In this document: piece by piece, positions 3,501-22,760 of the stretch
Layout: each line of letters begins with the position of its first letter
How positions within the stretch are numbered: position 1 is the stretch's first letter
Source: Candidatus Altimarinota bacterium
Lineage (GTDB): Bacteria > Patescibacteriota > Gracilibacteria > UBA4473
Direction: 5' to 3'
Length of the DNA: 34,283 nt
Assembly (NCBI GenBank): GCA_027028725.1
Contig: JALVIB010000030.1
Location: forward strand, 1 to 34,283
Program-made: the position numbers and the translations under genes
Notes under the pieces: model-generated
The model's input: the letters and a program-made list of their open reading frames with translations, nothing else
Told to the model about the DNA's origin: nothing
The model's database searches: none

Positions 3501-4830
3501 CTTGTTCTCCTGAAACATATAGAGCGAAGTTTTCTAGGTCGTTAGCTAGTTCAGCTGTACCTGTGTTTTTGAAAGTAATAGCTCTCAACTCAATATCTTT
3601 GTTTGTAGTTGAAGAGTTTAACATTCGGAATTTACCTAATTCTACAAAAGAATCACCAACATTAACTGTTGTATTTGATCCCAAAGTAGTCATAGTAAGT
3701 TGTGAAACTTGGTAATCAGCAACTTCCATTTCTTCACCTTCAATAGGGAAGTTTCCTACAACATTAGCTGCTGTAGATACGATGTCGTCAGCTGAAACAA
3801 CTGCGAATCGGTTGTGGTGTCCGATGTTACATCCTTCAGCACCAGATGCGTAACAAGTACCATCAGCTGCCAAAGTGTATTTGTTAGAAGCAACAACATC
3901 AGCAACCAAAGTTTGTCCCGCAGGAACTACAATTGGTGGGTTGAATCGTAATTCAACGATATCGTCGTTGTTAACAGATCGGTCGTTTCCAACTTTGAAT
4001 CCGTCAATTTCTAACCAAACTTTGTCGAAATCATCTGAATCACCAAGACCCAAACGAGTCAAAGTAATAGCTGAAATTTCAACATCGCTGTCATCAGAAG
4101 CTGTCAAATCAAGAGTTGTGAAAGGAACTGAAGTAGCATTGTAAGGAATGTTTGTTCCTCGTGGTGTATCAGCAGATAGAGAAACTTCTAGAGTTCCTGC
4201 TGCTGGATTAGTCGCTTCAGTAGCTGCCAGTAAACCTTGGTAAACAACAACTGCTGCTTCAGCACGAGTAACAGTATTTGCTGGTGCAAATGTACCGTCA
4301 CCGTAACCTAACATAATTCCGTGAGCTTTAACTGTTTCTACATATGGGTAGAACCAATCAGCTGGGTCAACATCGCTGAAGCTTGGTCCGTTATCAATTT
4401 CTTCTAATTCGAAGGCATTAACAACTTCTTTAGCTATTTCAGCTCGGTTGATTAGGTTGGCTGGTTTAAATGTACCGTCTGGATATCCGTCGATCCATCC
4501 GTAGTTGTACATTGTTTCTACATAATCGTAGAACCAGTCACCTTCTTGTACATCAGGGAAGTGTGCACCTCCTGTTGTGTCAATAGCTACATCAGCTGCA
4601 AGTACAATAATTTTTGATACTTCAGCACGATTTAGCTCTCTGTTTGGAGCAAAAGAACCATCATCATTACCAGTCATCACATTGATAGCTGCTAATTCTG
4701 AGATAGCCTCGTCTGCCCAAGATGGAATCTCTGCATCGTCAGTGTATGCAAAAGCTGTCGTCGTAACGAAAGCTAGTGCCAAAAATGACAATAGAGCGAC
4801 TCCTTTTTTAATTTTTGATAAAAAATTCAT
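547..4830 (-). CDS. S-layer protein with signal peptide and three N-terminal SLH domains
   Basis: Signal peptide ending AFA; three SLH repeats (LNRAE, INRAE, VTRAE with F.DV...WF); acidic, Thr/Ala/Asp-rich beta-type body of 1427 aa. Confidence 0.9.
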   Translation of the reverse strand: MNFLSKIKKGVALLSFLALAFVTTTAFAYTDDAEIPSWADEAISELAAINVMTGNDDGSFAPNRELNRAEVSKIIVLAADVAIDTTGGAHFPDVQEGDWFYDYVETMYNYGWIDGYPDGTFKPANLINRAEIAKEVVNAFELEEIDNGPSFSDVDPADWFYPYVETVKAHGIMLGYGDGTFAPANTVTRAEAAVVVYQGLLAATEATNPAAGTLEVSLSADTPRGTNIPYNATSVPFTTLDLTASDDSDVEISAITLTRLGLGDSDDFDKVWLEIDGFKVGNDRSVNNDDIVELRFNPPIVVPAGQTLVADVVASNKYTLAADGTCYASGAEGCNIGHHNRFAVVSADDIVSTAANVVGNFPIEGEEMEVADYQVSQLTMTTLGSNTTVNVGDSFVELGKFRMLNSSTTNKDIELRAITFKNTGTAELANDLENFALYVSGEQVSAETIIDGDYVTFRLDNGVTGGYVIEDGDSRIFSMRADVVSAEANDYIEFKVDNFEDIVGIEIGTAFGVKTVDPSGNNAEDANATLAKYTIDSGDINVSRDPNSLGNQEYAPGSNDVVAMTARVVVSQPIMVDGVKIKVDSYDIDGDTAGDQHSLTTLNNYFDNFRLYLNDDLVDTENTLSGTDAAPYLDYSSQFEITGASVMKLVMNIKDEATTGSWVKFALYAKDFDSPEYISSGDTVVENDLLGSALASKVEVEESVLTITRTDSFTSEVAVAGIQDATFMKFVLDNNDSGDVNITSITIKGLGTGAAESNYSNFTASLFVDGQQIGSSKTLDNSSDASIKGTAAFNDIAVVIPSAGQEEFTVVMDTIEAVATEALANTTVVDDGTSTTNVVGGAICPAADASATNSTSPVNCTSGITADVKAGDVIEMNGDFIIVTADAGTGATAIVVDPSTVDVDHTGQDINSVSREYPVGAASSGFTVASANNISDGDTLTIGAETCVVEDVTGNTVTCKNNEGTVNNSGEFGAQVPVGTAVTEAPGGSTIRMAVTAVDADNAENGSGVKVYEAGDLLGGTDTAGPGDLTGACDGSLDTPNYLCGAEFTFTTSGTLTVSQEGIYPSTVLVENQTAEVWKLRLESKYDEIQVKDLYLTNAIGTDFDGHADFMLYNEAGQLLGTEQMTNGKVHFELNANKIIVPKDGSADVTVKIKVRNINDAARTAKQLKLELDTTMPSIPGTTSTGIEALTGATGTDVSQTSIAGAPATGDAFIAYKTKITINALPKSTQPVFTADSAGGSDKAVFRFSISTDAAGDANINRLTFSVTSSSTNVYDTSADFTDTNWSLVKFADSGYTGNPVAILDSAGAGTYDALVFDGFSDLIENTNYYELRTKDPLNTTDGVDSLSFSFVNEATAAAAYETVDATDNAGAGTDGNGDGVLDTPVTAAAPADIVWSDRSDNTGAYPFLNGYELTIPSGTLAGASEQ

Positions 4831-5084
4831 CTTAGTTTTTATTTAGTAAATAAAGAAAATATTCCCCAAAAAGGGGGCTTTCTTGGGTTTGATTTACCAA
4901 TACAAAAAGCTCGCGAAAAAACACGAGAAAATTGGTAAATCGATATATAAGGTAGTTGAAAAAACTCAATATTAAGTTTTCTCATGGATATTCCGCAGAA
5001 TCCCGCGAAAAAATCCACTAAAAGGATTATTTAAATCCCTTAAAAAATTTCTAGAAAGACTATCATTTCATCTTTCCGGCCGTC

Positions 5085-5097
5085 TTTTCAAAGATCA
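5085..5097 (-). promoter_or_regulatory. boxA-like antitermination element in the S-layer leader
   Basis: Minus strand TGATCTTTGAAAA resembles rrn boxA and lies ~70 nt after the predicted transcription start. Confidence 0.5.
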
Positions 5098-5169
5098 AGG
5101 TCATTTGGCGATCCATTACTGGAGCGGGATAAGAGGACACACTCGTCCAAGTTATCCAAACCTGCGCGA

Positions 5170-5198
5170 ATTGTACCTACTTGTCTCCAGAAAGTCAA
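5170..5198 (-). promoter_or_regulatory. Sigma70-type promoter for the S-layer gene
   Basis: TTGACT (5198-5193), 17-bp spacer, TACAAT (5175-5170). Confidence 0.75.
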
Positions 5199-5463
5199 AC
5201 TTTCGTGATTTTCTAGACACATTTAATACAATGCAAGTAGTTAAACGAATTTCGCGGGATTTTGTTACAAAAAAACTTAGATTACGAGTTCACAAGATTA
5301 CAATAAATTCCCGCGAAAATTTACCATCTTCGTCATTGCGAGGAGCGAAGTATGAGCGACGCGGCAATCTACTTCCTTATTTTCAAATCCCCCTTAATCC
5401 CCCTTTCTCAAGGGGGAAATTTAAGGAATTATTTAAAAATCCCGCGAAATCTTCGCAAAAAAT

Positions 5464-5538
5464 GTAGGGACGCCCTTTATAGGCGTCCAAAAAAAATGAA
5501 TTCCAAATTATCGGGCGACCACAAGGAATCGCCCCTAC
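5464..5538. repeat. Inverted pair of GTAG-type REP elements (REPIN-like)
   Basis: GTAGGGACGCCCTTTATAGGCGTCC and the inverted GGGCGACCACAAGGAATCGCCCCTAC; related copies at ~5932, 10822 and 27342. Confidence 0.8.
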
Positions 5539-5568
5539 GAAAAATTTCGCGGGATTTTCCAACAGGGG

Positions 5569-5643
5569 TGGTGGAGCCAAGGAGAATCGAACTCCTATCT
5601 CTGCATTGTCAAGATGAGTATTTTACCATTAAACTATGACCCC
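5569..5643 (-). tRNA. Atypical tRNA with Ala-type acceptor (G3:U70, A73) and irregular anticodon arm (GAC or TGA register); possibly a pseudo-tRNA
   Basis: GGGGTCATAGTTTAATGGTAAAATACTCATCTTGACAATGCAGAGATAGGAGTTCGATTCTCCTTGGCTCCACCA: good acceptor, D and T arms and encoded CCA, but an imperfect anticodon stem. Confidence 0.75.
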
Positions 5644-6339
5644 GACTCCACCAGCGCGGAGTATATAAAAAAAGCTCGCCACAGCAAGCTCTTTTTATTG
5701 ACAATGCAGAGTGGGCCATAACTTTGGCACTCATCACTGGGATAATACCCATTCTTGTTTTATTTGTCAAAAAAAATCCCGCGAAAATTTACCATATTCG
5801 TCATTGCGAGGAGCGAGGTATGAGCGACGCGGCAATCTACTTCCTTATTTTCAAATCCCCCTTAATCCCCCTTTCTCAAGAGGAAAAACTAAGGAATTAC
5901 AAAAAAATCCCGCGAAATCTTCGCAAAAAATGTAGGGACGCCCTTTATGGGCGTCCAAAAAAAGTTAGATTACAAGTTCACGAGTTTACGAGTTCACAAG
6001 ATTACAATAAATTCCCGCGAAAATTTACCATCTTCGTCATTGCGAGGAGCGAGGTATGAGCGACGCGGCAATCTACTTCCTTATTTTCAAATCCCCCTTA
6101 ATCCCCCTTTCTCAAGAGGAAAAACTAAGGAATTACAATAAATTCCCGCGAAAATTTACCATCTTCGTCATTGCGAGGAGCGAAGTATGAGCGACGCGGC
6201 AATCTACTTCCTTATTTTCAAATCCCCCTTAATCTCTTTCTCAAGGGGGAAAACTAAGGAATTATTTTGAAAATTTCGCGGGATTTTCAAAAGGACAGGT
6301 CACGACCTGTCCTTTCTTGTTATCTTATAAACTCGTAAA

Positions 6340-8421
6340 CTATTCCCCGTTTCGTTCAGCGATAATTTTTTCTTCAACACTTTTTGGAACTTTCGCGTAA
6401 TCCGCGAATTCCATTGAATAACTGGCTCGTCCTTGAGTCATTGAACGAAGTTCTGTCGCGTATCCAAACATCTCTCCTAGTGGGATTTTGGCTTTAACAA
6501 AGTTGTTTAGACCGCGTGTCCCAGATTCTTGAATAATTCCTCGTTTTGAAGAAATGTTTCCCATAACATCTCCCAAATAATCTTCCGGAGTAATGACTTC
6601 CACATTCATAATTGGTTCAAGAATTGCTGGATCAGCGCGTTTTCCTCCGTCTTTGAAGGCTTGTGCCGCCGCAATCTTAAAGGCTAATTCAGATGAATCC
6701 ACATCGTGGTAGTTACCATCAACTAGTTCAACTTCCACATCAACTACTGGATATCCCGCGAGAATTCCGCGAGAAGTTGCTTCGTTAAATCCTTTTTCAC
6801 AACCTGGAATATACTCGTTTGGAATTGAAGCTCCTTTAATAGAGTTGATGAATTTAAATCCTGATCCCGGTTCTCCCGGACGAATTTTACAAATAACATG
6901 CGCGAATTGTCCACGACCACCTGATTGTTTCTTGTGAATGTATTCTGCATCAACTTCTTTTTGAATAGTTTCGCGGTAAGCAACTTGTGGTTGCCCGATA
7001 TTCGCTTCAACTTTGAATTCTCGTTTCAAACGATCAACTAGAATGTCTAGGTGAAGTTCTCCCATTCCCGCGATAATTGTTTGTAAAGTTTCTTCGTCAG
7101 TCCAGACTTTGAAAGTTGGATCTTCTTCGGCTAATTTTTGTAGAGCCAATCCCATTTTTTCTTGGTCAGCTTTTGTTTTTGGTTCAATTGAAATCGAAAT
7201 AACCGGTTCTGGGAACTCAATACTTTCTAGCAAGAACTCTTTCCCCATATCACACAAAGTGTCCCCTGTTTTGGTCGCTTTCAAACCAACAACCGCTCCA
7301 ATGTGTCCGGCTTGAATTTCTGGAATTTCTTCGCGGTGATTGGCGTGCATTTGTAATAATCGTCCCACTCGTTCTTTTTTCCCAGAATTAGCGTTGTAGA
7401 TATAAGATCCGGATTTCAAAGTCCCAGCATAAACTCGCACGAAACTAAGTCGTCCCACATACGGATCAGTGGCAATTTTGAAAGCCAAAGCCGCCAAAGG
7501 TCCGTCTTTGTCCGGAGGACAAGCCGTTTTCTTTTCTGGATCATTAACATCTTGCGCCTCAGCTGGTGGAATATCTTTTGGTGAAGGTAGTAATTCGCAA
7601 ACTTTGTCTAACATTGGTTGCACTCCTTTGTTTTTCAAAGCCGTTCCCGTCATAACCGGTACAAATTCTCCGGCAATAACTGCTCGTCGCATTCCCGCGA
7701 TAATTTCTTCTTCGCTCAATTCTTCTCCGTTCAAGTATTTTTCCATCAAAACTTCGTCTGACCCAGCTACCGCTTCCAGCATTTTTTCACGCCATTCTGC
7801 TGCTTCATCAGCCATATCTGCCGGAATATCAACAACATTAATATCCTTTCCAAGATCATCGTTGTAAACAGTCGCTTTCATTGCAATCAAATCAACAATT
7901 CCTTTGAAATCCGCTTCATTTCCGATTGGCAACTGAATTGGGAAAGCGTTTTTGGTCAATCTTTCGACAATTGAGTCATAACTTCGCCAAAAACTAGCTC
8001 CAGTTCGGTCTAGTTTGTTGATAAAACACATTCGCGGAACATTATATTTGTCAGCTTGTCGCCAAACTGTTTCTGATTGTGGCTCAACTCCCGCCACACC
8101 ATCAAAAATACAAACCGCTCCATCCAAAACTCGCAAAGATCGTTCCACTTCCACGGTAAAATCCACGTGACCAGGTGTATCGATAATGTTAATTTGGTGT
8201 CCTTTCCAGAAAGCAGTTGTCGCTGCCGAAGTAATGGTAATACCTCGTTCTTGTTCTTGTTCCATCCAGTCCATAGTAGCTTCACCTTCGTGAACTTCTC
8301 CTAATTTGTGAGATTTCCCAGTATAGAACAAAATTCGTTCTGTTACGGTTGTTTTTCCAGCGTCGATATGGGCAATAATTCCAATATTTCGGACTTGCTC
8401 CAGAGGTAAGATTTTAGTCAT
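6340..8421 (-). CDS. fusA: Elongation factor G
   Basis: [52 protein letters not shown]; 693 aa. Confidence 0.99.
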
Positions 8422-10966: not shown

Positions 10967-11767
10967 CTACACCGAAAAAACATCACAAATTTTCAATTTC
11001 CTCTGCAAAATCTGCTCGGCGCGTTTTTTGGTGAAATTGAGATCGTCGTCCGTGGCAATTTGAAAACTTTTTTTCGCCACCGCCTTGCGGGGCACAGCGG
11101 GATTTTTTTCTACCTCACCCCCGCCCTCTCCTGCTAGAAGAGGGAGTAAAGGAGAATCCTTTAAGTCCGGATTTTGGTCGGAAATCCCCCCAACCCACTT
11201 TATCAAGGGGGAGTTATCGGTAAGTAAATCTGTTAAAAAATAAACTTTCAACTGCGTGCCGGCGAGTTTTTGTAAAATTTGGCGCGTTCTTTTTTCCGCG
11301 AAAATTCCTTCGAGAAAAATCAGCGAATCCACGCGCCAAGTTTTGGCTCGGCGGATGTGTTTCCGTGCTAAACGGCGAAATTCTACGGAGTCGGCTAATC
11401 CTTCGTTCGCCATTTCTCGTAAAATCTGTGTTTCCAAAATGGAAAATTTCGCGGATTTTTCCGCACGCGGATTTTTTTGTCTGTAAGCGAAATTTTGTTT
11501 TGCAAGTTTATTGCAAAAACTCCGCGCATCCTTATTTTTTCTATCAAAAACAATTCCAACTCGTCCGAACTTAGTTTTTTCTTCAACAATTTTTTTAACT
11601 AACAGAAACCAGAAATCTTTTTCTGAAATAGCGTCTTTTTTATCAAAATCCCGCGATTTATTCTCCGAAGCTTTAGCGCAGGAGGAAATTTTTATCCAAA
11701 TTTTTTCCGCCGGATAATTTTTCGCCAAGGCGATTATTCCGAAGTCCGTTCCAACGAATTTTTTCAT
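10967..11767 (-). CDS. Degenerate glutamate racemase (MurI)-like protein lacking the catalytic Cys motifs, with in-frame repeat insertions
   Basis: FVGTDFG resembles IGVFDSG; GRVGIV; MANEGLADS...VDSLIFLEGIF resembles VEEG..D.LILGCTHYP; FQIATDD resembles FYTTGD. Visual similarity only. Confidence 0.55.
   Translation of the reverse strand: MKKFVGTDFGIIALAKNYPAEKIWIKISSCAKASENKSRDFDKKDAISEKDFWFLLVKKIVEEKTKFGRVGIVFDRKNKDARSFCNKLAKQNFAYRQKNPRAEKSAKFSILETQILREMANEGLADSVEFRRLARKHIRRAKTWRVDSLIFLEGIFAEKRTRQILQKLAGTQLKVYFLTDLLTDNSPLIKWVGGISDQNPDLKDSPLLPLLAGEGGGEVEKNPAVPRKAVAKKSFQIATDDDLNFTKKRAEQILQRKLKICDVFSV
11078..11098. mobile_element. 21-bp small dispersed element inserted in the core motif
   Basis: TTTCGC[CACCGCCTTGCGGGGCACAGC]GGGATTT, giving NPA[VPRKAVA]K. 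Confidence 0.85.
11656..11685. mobile_element. 30-bp small element inserted in the core motif
   Basis: AAAATCCCGCG[ATTTATTCTCCGAAGCTTTAGCGCAGGAGG]AAATTTT, giving KIS[SCAKASENKS]RDF. Confidence 0.75.
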
Positions 11768-12902: not shown

Positions 12903-14087
12903 ATGAATTTGAATTTTAAAATCTCTCCCAAGAATAAAATCCCGCTGCGCCCCGCAAGGCGGCGGCGAAAAATTATTTACGGGGTGACTGATCGGTCAAA
13001 TGATTCTTTGTGGCAAAAAATAAACGACTTTTTAATCGATAATTCACCAATTACCAAGAAAGAAAAAATGGTTTTTTTTAATTCCCTTAAACTTTTAGTC
13101 ACTTCGGGAGTTAATTTTACCAAAGCCATTCACATGATGGCGGAGCGGAGCAAAAATGAGCATTTGAAACGAATTTTACATACCATTGAATACGATATGT
13201 TGAACTCGGGGATGAGATTTTCTGAAGCAATGGCAAAATATCCGCGAGTTTTTAGTGTTTCAGAAATGAAAATGATTTATTCTGGAGAAATCGCGGGGCG
13301 GTTAGAAGAAGTTTTGGAAGCAGTAGCAACGCGAATTCAGAAAAATATCGAAATGGAAATTCGCGTGAAATCGGCGATGATGTATCCGATTACGGTTTTT
13401 ATCGCGATAATTTTGGCGGGAATAGTGGTGATGCTTTTTGTCGTGCCAAAATTTGAAGCAATGTTCGCGAGTTTTGGGAGTGATTTGCCGATTGCGACCA
13501 AAATTATGATTGGAATGTCGCGCTTTTTTCAAGACTACTGGTGGTTTTTGTTATTAATTTTAATTAGTGCTTGGGTAATTTTCCAAAACTGGAAAAAAAG
13601 CGAAGACGGAAAATATCAATGGGACGAGTTTTTATTGAATTTGCCGGGGATTGGTCCATTAATTCGCGATATTCAAACTGCAAAAATCGCGGGAAATTTT
13701 TCCACTCTCTTGGAGTCTGGAATTCCGATTGCCAAAGCGATTCATGTTTTGGGAGAAATTATTGATAACGATGTAATTTCGCAGGTTTTACTGCAAATTG
13801 AACACGAAGTTCGCAAAGGAAAACAAGTTCACGAAGCTTTTGCAGAACACCCAGAACTAGACCCGATTCTGGCAGAAGTGATAGAAATTGGGGAACAATC
13901 GGGAGCAATTCCGCAAGTTTTGCATAAAGTTGGAATGCAGTATGATTTAGAAGTTGACGCGCAGTTGAAAAATTTATCGGCGATGATTGAGCCACTGGTG
14001 ATTTTAATTGTAGGGCTGGCGGTCACCTTTATGGCGTTGGCGATTATGACACCAATTATGAAAATGCAATCGCTTTTTGCCGGCTAA
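12903..14087 (+). CDS. pilC: Type IV pilus platform protein PilC / T2SS F family
   Basis: Two T2SSF domains: SGV....A, GE.AG.LE.VL, KSAMMYP, LLESGIPI, IGEQSG, IEP. Confidence 0.93.
   Translation: MNLNFKISPKNKIPLRPARRRRKIIYGVTDRSNDSLWQKINDFLIDNSPITKKEKMVFFNSLKLLVTSGVNFTKAIHMMAERSKNEHLKRILHTIEYDMLNSGMRFSEAMAKYPRVFSVSEMKMIYSGEIAGRLEEVLEAVATRIQKNIEMEIRVKSAMMYPITVFIAIILAGIVVMLFVVPKFEAMFASFGSDLPIATKIMIGMSRFFQDYWWFLLLILISAWVIFQNWKKSEDGKYQWDEFLLNLPGIGPLIRDIQTAKIAGNFSTLLESGIPIAKAIHVLGEIIDNDVISQVLLQIEHEVRKGKQVHEAFAEHPELDPILAEVIEIGEQSGAIPQVLHKVGMQYDLEVDAQLKNLSAMIEPLVILIVGLAVTFMALAIMTPIMKMQSLFAG
12946..12966. mobile_element. 21-bp small dispersed element inserted in the core motif
   Basis: AAAATCCCGC[TGCGCCCCGCAAGGCGGCGGC]GAAA, giving IP[LRPARRR]RK. 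Confidence 0.85.
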
Positions 14088-14155: not shown

Positions 14156-14785
14156 ATGAGTAGTAATTCTAAAAAACAAACTCAAAATAAATTTCCCCCT
14201 GATAAGGGGGTCAGGGGGTTAAATTGTGGATTTACTTTGATTGAATTATTGGTAACAATGTCAATTATCGCGATTTTATTCGCGGTGGGAATGCCGGCGT
14301 TTTCAGATTTTCAAAAAACTTCTCGACTCAAAGAATCCGCGGAAACTTTGGAAACAGCTTTTGGCGAAGCTTTTTCGAGCGCGCGTTCCCGACCGGAATG
14401 TTTTGTGTTTTCGGGATCAGGGAATTCTTTGAAATTAGAAAGTTTTGATAAAACTTGCGAAGGAAATGCAAAAAATTCCCGCGAAATTTCTCTAAACCCT
14501 GGAGTGGAAATTTCTGAAAATTTTAAGATTAAATTCAAACCACCATTTGGTGATTTGGAGCTTGTTGAAGGAGATCTTGAAGATGAAAGTGATGAATTAA
14601 AAATAAAACTGTGTAATAAAGATTGTGTGAATTTTGTGGTTTATCAAAAATCGGGATTGTTGACGAGAAAATCCCGCGAAATTTCGGGGGAGAGTGTTTC
14701 CAAGTCCGGACTTAAAGTCCTGAGTTTTGTCTCAAGTCCGGACTTAGAAAAACACTCGGGAAATTCTAACCACTCAAGACAATGA
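14156..14785 (+). CDS. Minor pilin / pseudopilin (FimT/GspH-like)
   Basis: Prepilin motif G|FTLIELLVTMSIIAIL...P, then A.S.ARS; leader and C-terminal tail are repeat-derived. Confidence 0.85.
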   Translation: MSSNSKKQTQNKFPPDKGVRGLNCGFTLIELLVTMSIIAILFAVGMPAFSDFQKTSRLKESAETLETAFGEAFSSARSRPECFVFSGSGNSLKLESFDKTCEGNAKNSREISLNPGVEISENFKIKFKPPFGDLELVEGDLEDESDELKIKLCNKDCVNFVVYQKSGLLTRKSREISGESVSKSGLKVLSFVSSPDLEKHSGNSNHSRQ

Positions 14786-15258
14786 GAACGAAACAAAAAG
14801 GATTTGCTTTAATTGAAGTGATTGTTTCCATTGTGATTTTGTCGCTGGTTTTGGTAGCTGCGGTGGGACTTTTGTATTCCGTGGGACAAGCGGTAGAAAC
14901 CAACCGCGACCGCTTAACCGCGACTTATTTAGCGCAGGAGTGTTTGGAACTAGTCCGTAACGCCCGCGATACTTCTTGGAAAAACTACGAGCCATGGGAT
15001 TGCGCATGGAAAGAAACAACGCCTTGTGAGGGAAAACAGATTGTAAACCTGATTAAACAAAATCCAGTAATGATAAATGAAGAAAGTACAAAATTTTCGC
15101 GGGATTTTCAGGTAGAATCAATTGAGAATGTTTTGCAAGCACAAAGAAGCAGAACCTTATCGAATTCCGAAGAAGTGAAAATAACTTGCACCGTCTCGTG
15201 GGGCGAGAATTCCAAACTATCCATTTCGGAAATACTTACTAACTGGCGGAAAAGATGA
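14782..15258 (+). CDS. Minor pilin (PilV/GspI-like)
   Basis: KG|FALIEVIVSI, A.YLAQE.LE.VR, ITCTVSW. Confidence 0.85.
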   Translation: MRTKQKGFALIEVIVSIVILSLVLVAAVGLLYSVGQAVETNRDRLTATYLAQECLELVRNARDTSWKNYEPWDCAWKETTPCEGKQIVNLIKQNPVMINEESTKFSRDFQVESIENVLQAQRSRTLSNSEEVKITCTVSWGENSKLSISEILTNWRKR

Positions 15259-15914
15259 GAAAAATTTGGGAAAAAGTTTTTGGTAAAATCCCCCTCAATC
15301 CCCCTTTAAAGAAAGGGGGAGGCTCGCAGCAGGTGAAACAGGATGAAAAAAATAAAAAATTTTCCTTTTTCATCCCCCTTTTTTCAAAGGGGGACAAGAA
15401 GCAGGGAATAAGGCAAAGGGGGATTTTAATCAGAAATTTCGCGGGATTTTCCCTCATCGAATTGCTGGTGGCAATGACCATTGGTGGCGTGATTTTGACC
15501 GCAGTGATGACTAGTTATGTGGCAATGACCAAGACGAGTTTGCGACTGGATTTGGCGCGCCAGATGCAGAAAGAAACAAATTTCGCGGTAATTCGAATGG
15601 TGGATAAAATTCGGAATTATCCGATTAAAAATTGTGATGAGAAAAAATTAGTTTTGCAAAACAGACAAGGACATGAAATTACTTTTAAATTTTTGTTAGA
15701 AAATAAACAACAATTAACTCTCAATGAACAACCGCTTTTTTCGGAAAATATCGCGGTCGATGACGGACATTTTGATTGTAAAGGACTTGATGATGAAGAA
15801 AATCCCGCGAAAATTCAGCCCCGCGTGCAGATTTATCTCCAAGTTTCCGCGAAAAAAGATCCCGAAATCACCAACCGCGTGCAGACGACTATTTCTTCAC
15901 GAATTTTTAACTAA
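15255..15914 (+). CDS. Minor pilin (PilW/GspJ-like) with a long repeat-derived leader peptide
   Basis: AG|FSLIELLVAM at about residue 65; C-terminal QTTISSR. Confidence 0.85.
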   Translation: MRKIWEKVFGKIPLNPPLKKGGGSQQVKQDEKNKKFSFFIPLFSKGDKKQGIRQRGILIRNFAGFSLIELLVAMTIGGVILTAVMTSYVAMTKTSLRLDLARQMQKETNFAVIRMVDKIRNYPIKNCDEKKLVLQNRQGHEITFKFLLENKQQLTLNEQPLFSENIAVDDGHFDCKGLDDEENPAKIQPRVQIYLQVSAKKDPEITNRVQTTISSRIFN

Positions 15915-15967: not shown

Positions 15968-16939
15968 ATGAATAAATTAAAAAAACGAATACGAAACATC
16001 TTCCCCCTGACAAGGGGGCGAGGGGGTTTGAAAAACAACGGAATGGTAATCCTCTTGCCGACAATTATTTTATCAGGACTGATTTTGGCGGTAGGACTTG
16101 GTTTGTCGCGGGTTTTGATGACGGAACTAGAATTTTCCGCGGATTTGTTGTTTTCCGAAAAGGCGTATTTCGCGGCGGAATCTGGAGTAGAAAAATCTCT
16201 TTTGGCGCTCAAAGATAAACCGCTTAACTATGTTTCCGAATCGGATAAAGAAGTGGGAACAGGCGCGACTTATGATTTGGAAATTGCTAACTCGGTAAAA
16301 GAATTTCCGTTCGTTTTAGACGAAAACGAAACTATTAAATTCCGCTTGGGAGTGGATACTAATGAGAGTTTCGCGGGATATTCCGTGCGACCGATTACAA
16401 GTTTCAAAGTAGATAATTTAGTGGGAATAAAAAGAAATCTGCACTGGAAAATCCTTTGTTTAGTTGATAGCGGAGGAAATCCCGCCCTTCAACGAAGTTC
16501 AGGGCAAGCCCATCGGCAGAGCTCAGGGCAAGCGAAAAAAACGGTAGCCTTGTCAGGGACAGGAGATAATTTTACCAAAGGAAATTATGATGATGGAGAG
16601 AATGAGATTACAACTGAAACTATAGTGAACTTTTTAGGTAGATATAATTCAGAGGGAAACCCTTGTTTTATGTCGTTATCTAATTTTTCTGAGATAAATG
16701 AAGGAAATTCTAGTCGAACCAACCCTTCAACATTTAACTCACAACAAACTAATAATTCAAAAATTCGCGGGATTTTTAAGCCAATAATTCCCGAAACAAT
16801 CGCTCCAGCAAAAGTGAAAATCACCGCCACGGGAAAAAGTTTTTCCCGCGAAAAAATTGTTTCCTTTGATTATTGGCAAAAGAATCTATCCGCGGTTTAT
16901 GATTTGGGGTTGTATTATACGAAAGATTTAACAGAGTAG
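15968..16939 (+). CDS. Minor pilin (PilX/GspK-like)
   Basis: NG|MVILL hydrophobic helix without Glu5, KAYFAAESGVE, ITATG near the C-terminus. Confidence 0.8.
   Translation: MNKLKKRIRNIFPLTRGRGGLKNNGMVILLPTIILSGLILAVGLGLSRVLMTELEFSADLLFSEKAYFAAESGVEKSLLALKDKPLNYVSESDKEVGTGATYDLEIANSVKEFPFVLDENETIKFRLGVDTNESFAGYSVRPITSFKVDNLVGIKRNLHWKILCLVDSGGNPALQRSSGQAHRQSSGQAKKTVALSGTGDNFTKGNYDDGENEITTETIVNFLGRYNSEGNPCFMSLSNFSEINEGNSSRTNPSTFNSQQTNNSKIRGIFKPIIPETIAPAKVKITATGKSFSREKIVSFDYWQKNLSAVYDLGLYYTKDLTE
16486..16533. mobile_element. Two tandem 24-bp small elements inserted in the core motif
   Basis: AAATCCCGC[CCTTCAACGAAGTTCAGGGCAAGC][CCATCGGCAGAGCTCAGGGCAAGC]GAAAA, giving NPA[LQRSSGQA][HRQSSGQA]K. Confidence 0.85.
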
Positions 16940-19263: not shown

Positions 19264-19836
19264 TTGCCAAAGATGAATTCTGAATATCTGCAAAAATACG
19301 CGCGAAATTTTCCCATCACGACAATTCTTTTGCTGATTAATCTGGTTATTTTCTTTCATAATCAAGTCAGTTATCCCTTTGTGGCGATGCCCGGAGTGAT
19401 TAATTTAAACTCTTTTTTGGCAAACTTTTCACACATTGGGCTAATGCACTTTGGATTTAATATGCTGGTTTTATGGCAAATTTCCCCACTCATTGAAGTA
19501 AAATTTCGCCACCGCCTTGCGGGGCGCAGCGGGATTTTCTATGCGGGAATAATTTTGGCAATTGCGAGTTTGATAACTTTGGGGGTGGCGAAATTTTCTA
19601 ATTATCCGACGCTGGGTTTTTCGGGAATTGGACTGGGAATGATGATTTTCGCGGGATTTTTGTACTGGAAAAATAAACATATTGCCAAACAACTTCTCGG
19701 CTGGGCAGTAGCAAATATTGTATTGGGATTGACTCCAGGGATTTCTTTTGCCGGACATTTCATCGGTGCTTTGGCTGGAGCTTTAATTTTTGGGGTTATT
19801 TATTTTGTTTTTCCCAAAAACGAAAAATCATTCTAA
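19264..19836 (+). CDS. Rhomboid intramembrane serine protease
   Basis: FSHIGLMHFGFNM, GFSG (catalytic Ser), ISFAGHFIGALAG (catalytic His). The real start may be ATG 19273. Confidence 0.92.
   Translation: MPKMNSEYLQKYARNFPITTILLLINLVIFFHNQVSYPFVAMPGVINLNSFLANFSHIGLMHFGFNMLVLWQISPLIEVKFRHRLAGRSGIFYAGIILAIASLITLGVAKFSNYPTLGFSGIGLGMMIFAGFLYWKNKHIAKQLLGWAVANIVLGLTPGISFAGHFIGALAGALIFGVIYFVFPKNEKSF
19510..19530. mobile_element. 21-bp small dispersed element inserted in the core motif
   Basis: AAATTTCGC[CACCGCCTTGCGGGGCGCAGC]GGGATTTT, giving FR[HRLAGRS]GI. Confidence 0.85.
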
Positions 19837-21767: not shown

Positions 21768-22760
21768 TTACAAAAAGATATTAAAAGCGTAACCGATAAT
21801 AATTATTCCCAAAGTTACAATTCCAAAAAATATCGCGAGAAGTTGCCATTTCAGAACTTTTTTGAGAATAAACGCTTCCGGTAAAGAAATCCCAACAATC
21901 GCCATCATCAAAGCCAAAGCCGTCCCCAGCGGAACTCCTTTCGCGACTAATGACTGAATAATCGGAATAACTCCACTGGCGTTGGAATACAGCGGAACGG
22001 CGAGTAAAACCGCGAGCGGAACTCCCCACCAACCGGCTTTTTGTAGATATTTTTCAAAAAATCCCTGCGGGACAAAGCCGTGAATAAATCCTCCCAAAGC
22101 GACTCCGCCCAGCACATACCACATAATTTTTCGCGTGATTTCAAAAGCTTCCGCTGATATTTTTTTCCAGACTTGGCGAAACAAAATTTCGCCACCGCCT
22201 TGCGGGGCGCAGCGGGATTTTGCTTTTTTGTGTTCAGAATGAACTTTCCAGACAAAATCTGCCACATATTTTTCTAAATTTAGTTTTCCCATAATAAATC
22301 CGCCCAACATTCCGATGAAAATTCCCGCGAAAATATACGCCAAAGTTATTTTCAAGCCGAACATTCCGATGAATAAGGCAATCGCGACTTCGTTAATCAG
22401 TGGCGAAGTTATCAAAAACGCAAAAGTCACGCCGAGCGGAATCCGCGCTTCGATAAATCCCATAAATAATGGAATCGACGAACACGAACAAAACGGCGTA
22501 ATCGCCCCAAAAATTGTCGCGAGAAAATAATCTAGTCCGTAAAATTTGTGCTTGGAGAGAAAATCTCGGAGTTTTTCAATCGGCAAATAATACCGCATCA
22601 AACTCATTAAGTGTGTGATGATAATTATCAGGAACAAAATTTTCAGCGAATCGTAGATGAAAAAATTCAACGCCTCAGCGAGATGCGTCCCTTTTTCGAG
22701 AGCAAACAGGTCAAAAGTTAGGTAATTCGCCAGCCATTCAAACGGATAAAAGATATTCAT
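21768..22760 (-). CDS. Permease, DUF318/ArsP-like
   Basis: ITPFCSCSSIP, FLITSPLINEVA, GVPLGTALA.MMA..G.SLPE. Confidence 0.9.
   Translation of the reverse strand: MNIFYPFEWLANYLTFDLFALEKGTHLAEALNFFIYDSLKILFLIIIITHLMSLMRYYLPIEKLRDFLSKHKFYGLDYFLATIFGAITPFCSCSSIPLFMGFIEARIPLGVTFAFLITSPLINEVAIALFIGMFGLKITLAYIFAGIFIGMLGGFIMGKLNLEKYVADFVWKVHSEHKKAKSRCAPQGGGEILFRQVWKKISAEAFEITRKIMWYVLGGVALGGFIHGFVPQGFFEKYLQKAGWWGVPLAVLLAVPLYSNASGVIPIIQSLVAKGVPLGTALALMMAIVGISLPEAFILKKVLKWQLLAIFFGIVTLGIIIIGYAFNIFL
22193..22213. mobile_element. 21-bp small dispersed element inserted in the core motif
   Basis: AAAATTTCGC[CACCGCCTTGCGGGGCGCAGC]GGGATTTT, giving KSR[CAPQGGG]E. Confidence 0.85.

Follow-up and report, generated by a model that had tools for sequence, protein, structure and literature searches.

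The small dispersed repeats (SDRs) of the Nostocaceae are hairpin-forming sequences of 21–27 nt, and the Rickettsia palindromic elements (RPEs), of about 100–150 bp, are selfish palindromes that are tolerated in housekeeping open reading frames (ORFs), the frame being kept. The AT-rich genomes of yeast mitochondria carry mobile inserts known as GC clusters or 'byp' elements, which are small, palindromic and rich in GC and in some cases lie within coding regions; byps are organellar, are skipped by the ribosome and need not have a length that is a multiple of three. Repetitive extragenic palindromic (REP) sequences have as their defining feature a GTAG (CTAC) tetranucleotide beside the hairpin. 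Here we describe a family of 24-nt hairpin-forming units (hereafter the 24-mer), two of which lie side by side within a pilus-associated gene in a 34,283-nucleotide stretch of DNA from Candidatus Altimarinota bacterium (contig JALVIB010000030.1, positions 1–34,283; hereafter the window). The nearest precedent is found in a passage of PMC5861425 that cites Elhai et al. 2008, according to which the small dispersed repeat SDR5 may insert into HIP1 (highly iterated palindrome 1), a palindrome that is hyper-abundant in cyanobacteria; as portrayed there, these repeats are likewise very small, dispersed and thought to be mobile, with a hyper-abundant motif as their site. Lineage and motif differ, the sequence probably does as well, and the 24-mer is intragenic, translated in frame, distributed across phyla and arranged in tandem heterodimers. 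Excerpts from two further sources present REPINs (REP doublets forming hairpins) as non-autonomous mobile DNA (PMC3116915) and palindromic amphipathic repeat coding elements (PARCELs) as being horizontally distributed among diverse microbes (PMC2996958).

Direct reading of the window at 16477–16540 gives a short motif that is split into two halves by two 24-nt units, as follows:

16477–16485, + strand: left motif half AAATCCCGC, directly 5′ of the insert
16486–16509, + strand: unit 1, alpha type, encoding (A)LQRSSGQ; with the preceding GC it makes up a 5-bp + 3-bp hairpin
16510–16533, + strand: unit 2, beta type, encoding (A)HRQSSGQ; its inner stem is GGC/GCT, not AAC/GTT
16534–16540, + strand: right motif half GAAAAAA; the GC that ends unit 2 is also present just before unit 1

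The 48 bp at 16486–16533 are head-to-tail units that split TCCCGC^GAA. We read them, with a probability of roughly 0.65, as an alpha + beta heterodimer of a hairpin-forming, non-coding and non-autonomous insertion element of 24 nt, which would be mobilised in trans and land at the motif centre. When re-read in the window, the sequence of the site was as given in a preliminary description of this DNA, except that the two units differ at 6/24 positions (3, 6, 7, 9, 10 and 13) rather than at 7. The insert is in frame and forms residues 173–188 (ALQRSSGQ AHRQSSGQ) of the ORF at 15968–16939, the peptide being the one stated previously. Adjacent 24-mers that agree at 18/24 positions or more occur only at 16486–16533 in the window; 200 mononucleotide shuffles contained a mean of 0.01 and a maximum of 1 such place. 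The 11-mer TCAGGGCAAGC, which is common to both units, has 2 matches in the window (0.26 expected), a number that was reached in 4/100 shuffles. Tandem Repeats Finder, run on 16300–16700, did not call the 24-nt period and returned only a period-11 row with a score of 39; it is not useful for two units that have diverged to this extent.

The genome from which the window comes (G000) was compared with those of its two congeners (G001 and G002), three species of the genus in all. A pattern derived from the units, with up to 3 mismatches allowed, matched 13 places in G000 as opposed to 1 for the reversed control and, with manual additions, the family comprises 16 units, which stand singly at 7 of the 11 loci, in pairs at 3 and as a triplet at 1. 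Excision of the units in silico restored the exact 9-mer motif TCCCGCGAA at 5/11 junctions (3 forward, 2 reverse), the motif with one mismatch at 3/11 and with two mismatches at the other 3/11; among random 16-mers of the genome, such sites were held by 1.7% (exact), 2.9% (up to 1 mismatch) and 6.1% (up to 2 mismatches). The insertion point is fixed, the junction lying at the same offset directly after CGC in 11/11 loci. Two expectations of the preliminary description are thereby borne out: the flanks of the other genomic copies are non-random, and this second family, which is unrelated in sequence to a family of 21-nt inserts (the 21-mer), occupies the same motif point. Every array has GC at its end and also directly before it, where empty sites have a single GC. 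As to the GC duplication proposed earlier, a 2-bp duplication is indistinguishable from no duplication: if GC was duplicated, the inserted core measures 22 nt, and if not, 24 nt were inserted, in both cases at the centre of the palindromic CGCG. In its size and copy number (24 nt, 16 units, 11 loci, dispersed) and in its insertion into a hyper-abundant short motif, the family behaves as SDR-like repeats do.

The motif TCCCGCGAA (in extended form AAATCCCGCGAAAWTT) is the commonest 9-mer of the genome, with 2199 copies on both strands of 1,041,106 bp at 38% GC, or 2.1 per kb. The window holds 67 copies (for instance at 16370–16378, 16764–16772 and 16844–16852) where 0.21 would be expected, so that the proposed landing pad is far more frequent than by chance. 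Genome-wide, 817 copies (37%) are intergenic and 1382 lie in ORFs, with all six frames represented, as judged with a crude longest-ORF caller rather than a gene finder. A 12-mer, AATCCCGCGAAA, occurs 1391 times in G000, 281 times in G001 and 1012 times in G002, and at most once in any of 28 further relatives from its family or class; the motif is thus genus-specific. Across five orthologous gene sets, 17 comparisons of motif copies with the congeners gave 4 that were the same, 7 within 2 mismatches, 4 with no motif and 2 gaps. The copies line up with those of the congeners without indels and so arise by substitution; at two sites it stands in the opposite orientation in a congener. In density and architecture the motif resembles uptake signal sequences or HIP1.

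At the orthologous sites of the congeners the insert is missing. In G001, the orthologue of the host gene, at 64% identity, has the sequence ...LCLVD-DNSAKKT... across a near-motif that nothing interrupts, so that the empty NPAK-type site that had been predicted is found as N-S-A-K-K. Orthologues of phosphoglucose isomerase (PGI), glutamate dehydrogenase (GDH), formyltransferase (Fmt) and RNase J, in G001 and/or G002, display an exact 8-codon gap at the unit. Overall, the comparison covered 5 of the 11 loci (the pilus gene and these four) and revealed an exact gap of 24 or 48 nt at 5/5, as anticipated in the form of an 8- or 16-residue alignment gap. The insert is also absent from every one of 28 homologues of the host protein (30–81% identity), in an alignment made with 29 of the 31 proteins found, two that covered only 61% of the query having been left out. 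Such presence/absence at orthologous sites is a further trait of SDR-like repeats. The best reading is that the element was inserted into the pilus-associated gene in this lineage after its split from the congeners. That the segment is instead ancestral and was deleted in the relatives, or is an assembly artefact, we regard as extremely improbable: with three congeners only, the polarity of gain and loss rests on parsimony, but precise deletions would have to have occurred many times to leave exact unit-sized gaps at 5/5 loci and in 28/28 homologues, some with as little as 30% identity, and the family was not found in the congeners. An artefact is opposed by the eleven in-frame loci and by contigs from a public run in which the two sides of the site are found again, although this run may itself be the source of the assembly.

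The two units of the pilus gene are not each other's closest relatives. Unit 1 is identical to a single unit at G000:C17:19808–19833 and differs by 1–2 changes from units on contigs C60 and C6; alpha units at different loci differ at a mean of 2.6 positions, and tandem partners differ at 6–9. The pair is thus not a recent local duplication, since unit 1 is nearer to units elsewhere than to its neighbour. A beta-type unit follows an alpha-type unit at three loci (the pilus gene, C6 and C60), and mixed alpha/beta arrays are found in other phyla too. Of the earlier suggestion of two successive insertions rather than recent slippage, the second half holds (0–2 versus 6 changes); either two insertions, the end of the unit re-offering a GC, or insertion of a preformed dimer would produce the same arrangement. 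A local minisatellite, in which a single insertion or origin gave the first unit and replication slippage the second, which then diverged, would agree with the head-to-tail arrangement and its shared GC, with arrays of 2–3 units here and up to about 12 units in another genome, and with a change, CAGGC, shared by the C6 units, which hints at local homogenisation. We consider it very unlikely, because unit 1 is 0–2 differences from units at three other loci and 6 from its neighbour, because the alpha-then-beta order recurs at three loci and because mixed arrays occur in other phyla; in a slippage minisatellite, tandem partners would be the closest relatives. A diversity-generating retroelement or another reverse-transcriptase route was rejected: RVT_1 has no match in G000, G001 or G002, and the differences between units are not adenine-specific.

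Each unit, taken with the preceding GC, can fold into a hairpin with a 5-bp outer stem and a 3-bp inner stem. Over the 16 G000 units, pairing is seen in 87.5% of cells, as compared with 9–47.5% when the partner is slid, and compensatory changes are present in 4/8 pairs; in one unit, for example, the outer stem GCCCT/AGGGC has become GTTCT/AGAAC. The covariation score and the number of double changes per cell were reached by 0/500 shuffles. These counts were restricted to the G000 units because units from other genomes, having been chosen by a fixed pattern, cannot show covariation of the outer stem; RNAalifold returned no structure for the latter. The thermodynamic signal is modest, the DNA folding energy of unit 1 being −4.8 kcal/mol (z = −2.2). 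A search of Rfam gave 6 rows, all far below the gathering scores (best 16.4 bits versus 45), and matched no known RNA family.

The same motif point receives other inserts. Genome-wide, the 21-nt hairpin family has 87 copies there, which use three registers and occur both between genes and in every frame; 79/81 of its cores in the three congeners are in G000. Its copies in the window are:

11073–11102, − strand: 21-mer copy
12940–12969, + strand: 21-mer copy
19505–19548, − strand: 21-mer copy
22188–22217, − strand: 21-mer copy

The 21-mer at 12944–12964 is precisely absent, with the motif restored, from contigs of 3 runs from another study, and therefore was recently gained or lost at this motif point. 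A genome-wide listing of inserts at the motif centre further includes 21-mers with other loops, a 20-mer hairpin (two copies), 27-mers (three copies) and several inserts with GGCAGGC as their end. Separately, a 1.5-kb region of the window without long ORFs (4830–6340) is made up of 131-bp tandem units (95% matches), each with the motif, a GC-rich segment and a C-rich hairpin.

This variety of unrelated mini-inserts at one point (21-mers in three registers, loop variants, the 20-mer and the 27-mers) would suit passive copy-and-paste without a dedicated enzyme, whereby whatever is lodged at the motif centre spreads to other motif copies by short-homology recombination or template switching with the motif halves (8–9 nt) as arms, a process that natural transformation might help. 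So would the occurrence of the 24-mer without such a target in other genomes. Preference for the motif is thus a property of this genome and not of the element, because varied inserts share it here and no such target is seen elsewhere. Passive copying nevertheless seems rather unlikely to us: 2/11 copies sit in a reverse-oriented motif, 6/11 sit in degenerate versions of the motif with flanks that match the sister species and not a donor, the arms are very short, and neither the arrival of the element in the genome nor its occurrence across phyla would be explained.

All 11 loci of the 24-mer lie inside long ORFs in the sense orientation, and the frame that reads A-L-Q-x-S-S-G-Q is common to 10/11 of them, the exception being PGI. 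Set against the distribution of motif sites, this strand and frame bias has P = 2.5e-8 for the plain motif and P = 1e-6 for its A-rich variant. Stop codons account for some of this bias towards one strand: two antisense frames carry them in 16/16 and 11/16 units. The hosts are RNase J, a 1929-aa ORF, Fmt, a lamin-tail-domain protein, PSP1, the pilus-associated ORF, an ATP-grasp/MATCAP protein, an M23 peptidase with SLH domains, FemAB, GDH and PGI. These are mostly housekeeping enzymes and not a set of surface proteins; the proposal that the inserts diversify surface proteins is therefore unsupported, RNase J, Fmt, GDH, PGI, FemAB and PSP1 being among the hosts, and no indication of a programmed or adaptive process was seen in this analysis. 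The PGI gene (G000:C87:15247–16581) has taken up three 21-mer inserts and one 24-mer insert and still has an open frame of 444 aa.

Beyond the genus, the distribution is patchy and crosses phyla. The 24-mer pattern has 0 matches in G001 and G002 and one match each in 2/30 relatives; both congeners and 26/28 further relatives lack it. A scan with the exact pattern, with one genome per species, yielded 36 stretches where about 4 would be expected by chance (hand calculation), from Patescibacteria lineages, Pirellulales, Acidobacteriota, Spirochaetia, Ignavibacteria and Thiocystis; 25 of those genomes hold 1–12 copies each, and the reversed control gave 0. A slightly wider pattern was found in at least 118 metagenome contigs. 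The flanks of the metagenome copies have no common target, and outside the source genome the 24-mer is not in this motif. The landing pad proposed earlier is thus upheld for the source genome and does not extend to the 24-mer elsewhere. Frames were counted only in contigs below 48% GC, as high-GC contigs show long ORFs in every frame: of 25 units, 12 are in the same sense frame within ORFs of at least 120 aa, 4 are in another sense frame, 3 are antisense and 6 have no such ORF. At a GroEL site in two genomes (L020 and L033), the element is 26/26 identical and the flanks are 77% and 69% identical, and one position of MiaA is occupied in three contigs (L004, L008 and L070). Other small low-GC genomes carry the 24-mer in conserved enzymes at positions that are identical between genomes, with an Ala codon directly after it in every case, and in L012 its host is nucleotidyltransferase-like; this name, like GroEL and MiaA, comes from a reading of the translations. 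As for a vehicle, none was found: blastn of the 63-nt site against phages gave nothing that covered 80% of the query (best partial matches E = 0.1), the best partial match among plasmids had E = 0.009, and the pattern scan of viral contigs gave 0 matches.

In our preferred reading, a mobile 24-nt element lands, in this genome, at the GC in the middle of CGCG, the core of the genus-specific motif, and would be moved by an enzyme, of the HUH/Y1 type or another, that acts in trans and recognises the hairpin when the DNA is single-stranded. Copies would survive only where harm is small, which the length of 8 codons and the dominance of the sense frame may reflect. The dominant frame encodes A-L-Q-x-S-S-G-Q, a peptide that is small and polar and takes the form of a disordered loop in the structure model; the frame bias would stem from purifying selection, and the insert would have no adaptive role in the pilus protein.

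Several observations weigh against this reading. The one candidate for a mobilising enzyme, the REP-associated tyrosine transposase (RAYT) gene of G000, is flanked by GTAG-type REPs and not by the 24-mer, and Y1_Tnp occurs in 17/25 other genomes with the 24-mer and in 15/30 relatives. Presence or absence of the 24-mer was not seen at the level of reads, the run contigs ending or overlapping in the repeated unit, with no indel row. The DNA fold of unit 2 (−3.3 kcal/mol, z = −0.42) is no better than that of shuffles and, apart from the hairpin, the unit has no terminal inverted repeats. Intergenic copies number 0/11 loci although 37% of motif sites are intergenic. When only coding motif sites on the sense strand are considered, the dominant frame still holds 10/11 loci where 45% would be expected (P ~0.002, hand calculation), an excess that could mean function rather than mere tolerance, and the identity at the GroEL site fits constraint on the nucleotides of the element.

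Selection could instead maintain the copies as a functional module, with existing copies kept or new ones recruited for a role played by the 8-residue peptide or by the hairpin, be it in mRNA or in DNA. Such a module would account for the strict sense orientation, the single dominant frame and the lack of an intergenic copy, for the covariation of the hairpin, for the 26/26 identity at the GroEL site with flanks at 69–77%, for the MiaA site that recurs in three contigs and for the same frame in 12/19 units within ORFs of at least 120 aa in other low-GC contigs. Yet the hosts are functionally unrelated, the congeners and 28 homologues do without the insert, the insert is modelled as a disordered loop, variation among units is concentrated in the loop and not at third codon positions, and no Rfam family matches. 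On balance we think such a role improbable.

The RAYT gene (G000:C87:7199–7765; L061:1459–2025) encodes 188 aa, with 33–34 bits for Y1_Tnp (Pfam) and 89.6 bits for REP_Tyr_transpos (NCBIfam; cut-off 80). It is the sole Y1/RAYT gene in G000 and was not found in G001 or G002; in parallel, two families of GTAG-type REPs have 44 sites in G000 and none in the two congeners. On its flanks stand perfect, GC-rich palindromes headed by CTAC/GTAG; the RAYT gene itself contains one of these REPs in frame, and the next ORF contains another. Because of the ratios 17/25 and 15/30, there is no clear association between Y1_Tnp and the 24-mer. With support from neither co-occurrence nor flanking repeats, RAYT was set aside as the mobiliser and kept as a weak candidate only. 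The 24-mer resembles REPs and REPINs in being a short imperfect multi-copy palindrome that can form a hairpin and is too small to encode anything, and a RAYT is present in G000 alone among the congeners; it differs in having no GTAG/CTAC head (absent from 16/16 units), in being intragenic (11/11 loci), in not standing beside the RAYT and in not forming inverted doublets.

Other described elements are more distant. RPEs are confined to Rickettsia, whereas the 24-mer is far smaller, crosses phyla and has a defined target motif. MITEs (miniature transposable elements with inverted repeats), of 50–500 bp with terminal inverted repeats and a target-site duplication, are likewise far larger than the 24-nt unit, which has no terminal inverted repeats besides its stem. 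Unlike for byps, plain read-through is suggested here by the lengths of 21 and 24 nt. PARCELs are longer intragenic tandem repeats of surface proteins and are not known to have a target motif or single units in housekeeping enzymes. A literature search, with supplementary repeat catalogues outside its scope, found no description of the 24-mer, its peptide strings or an uptake-type motif of Patescibacteria.

We also entertain, tentatively and as an unlikely proposition, a horizontally spreading 'nano-element', possibly the smallest translated mobile one, that would be common to Patescibacteria, Acidobacteriota, Planctomycetota, Spirochaetia and others. It would be kept as a hairpin and be integrated at GC sites without an element-encoded or lineage-specific transposase, for instance if nuclease-resistant hairpin single strands from the environment were captured at nicked sites; in this genus it would land in a 2-per-kb motif maintained by an uptake-signal-like or HIP1-like process.

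If the 24-mer is a mobile element as we propose, elements of 21–24 nt that home to one motif point have left inserts of 7 or 8 residues in core enzymes of a 1-Mb genome, and the genus would offer a second, independent case of the SDR5-in-HIP1 phenomenon. Since clean empty and filled orthologous sites are available and the element is common to several phyla, phylogenetic profiling for the enzyme is feasible. Inserts of this kind create spurious 'lineage-specific loops' in protein alignments and structure models, and the repeated units break short-read assemblies.

The host gene lies in a pilus neighbourhood:

14156–15914, + strand: three ORFs with an N-terminal methylation (prepilin) motif, upstream of the host ORF
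15968–16939, + strand: host ORF, 323 aa, pilus-associated, with an N-terminal hydrophobic helix and then a beta domain

In an AlphaFold2 model of the host protein (mean predicted local distance difference test score (pLDDT) 81.4), a long N-terminal helix (26–83) is followed by beta strands, and the insert is modelled between two strands as a low-confidence, disordered loop (two 10-residue blocks with pLDDT of 51 and 54). The protein matches 0 Pfam families even at E <= 5, and Foldseek against the PDB returned no match at E <= 0.001; its G001 orthologue matches PilX_N at E = 0.17 (12.3 bits versus a cut-off of 25.5). The basis of the earlier label 'PilX-like pilin' is limited to a pilin-like architecture and a pilus gene neighbourhood, and the host family is an uncharacterised pilus-associated one. 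Its members (the ORF at 15968–16939 and homologues P0002–P0031) are about 250–360 aa long, are without a Pfam family and share a strongly conserved segment after the N-terminal helix; several have variable N-terminal extensions that resemble further mini-inserts.

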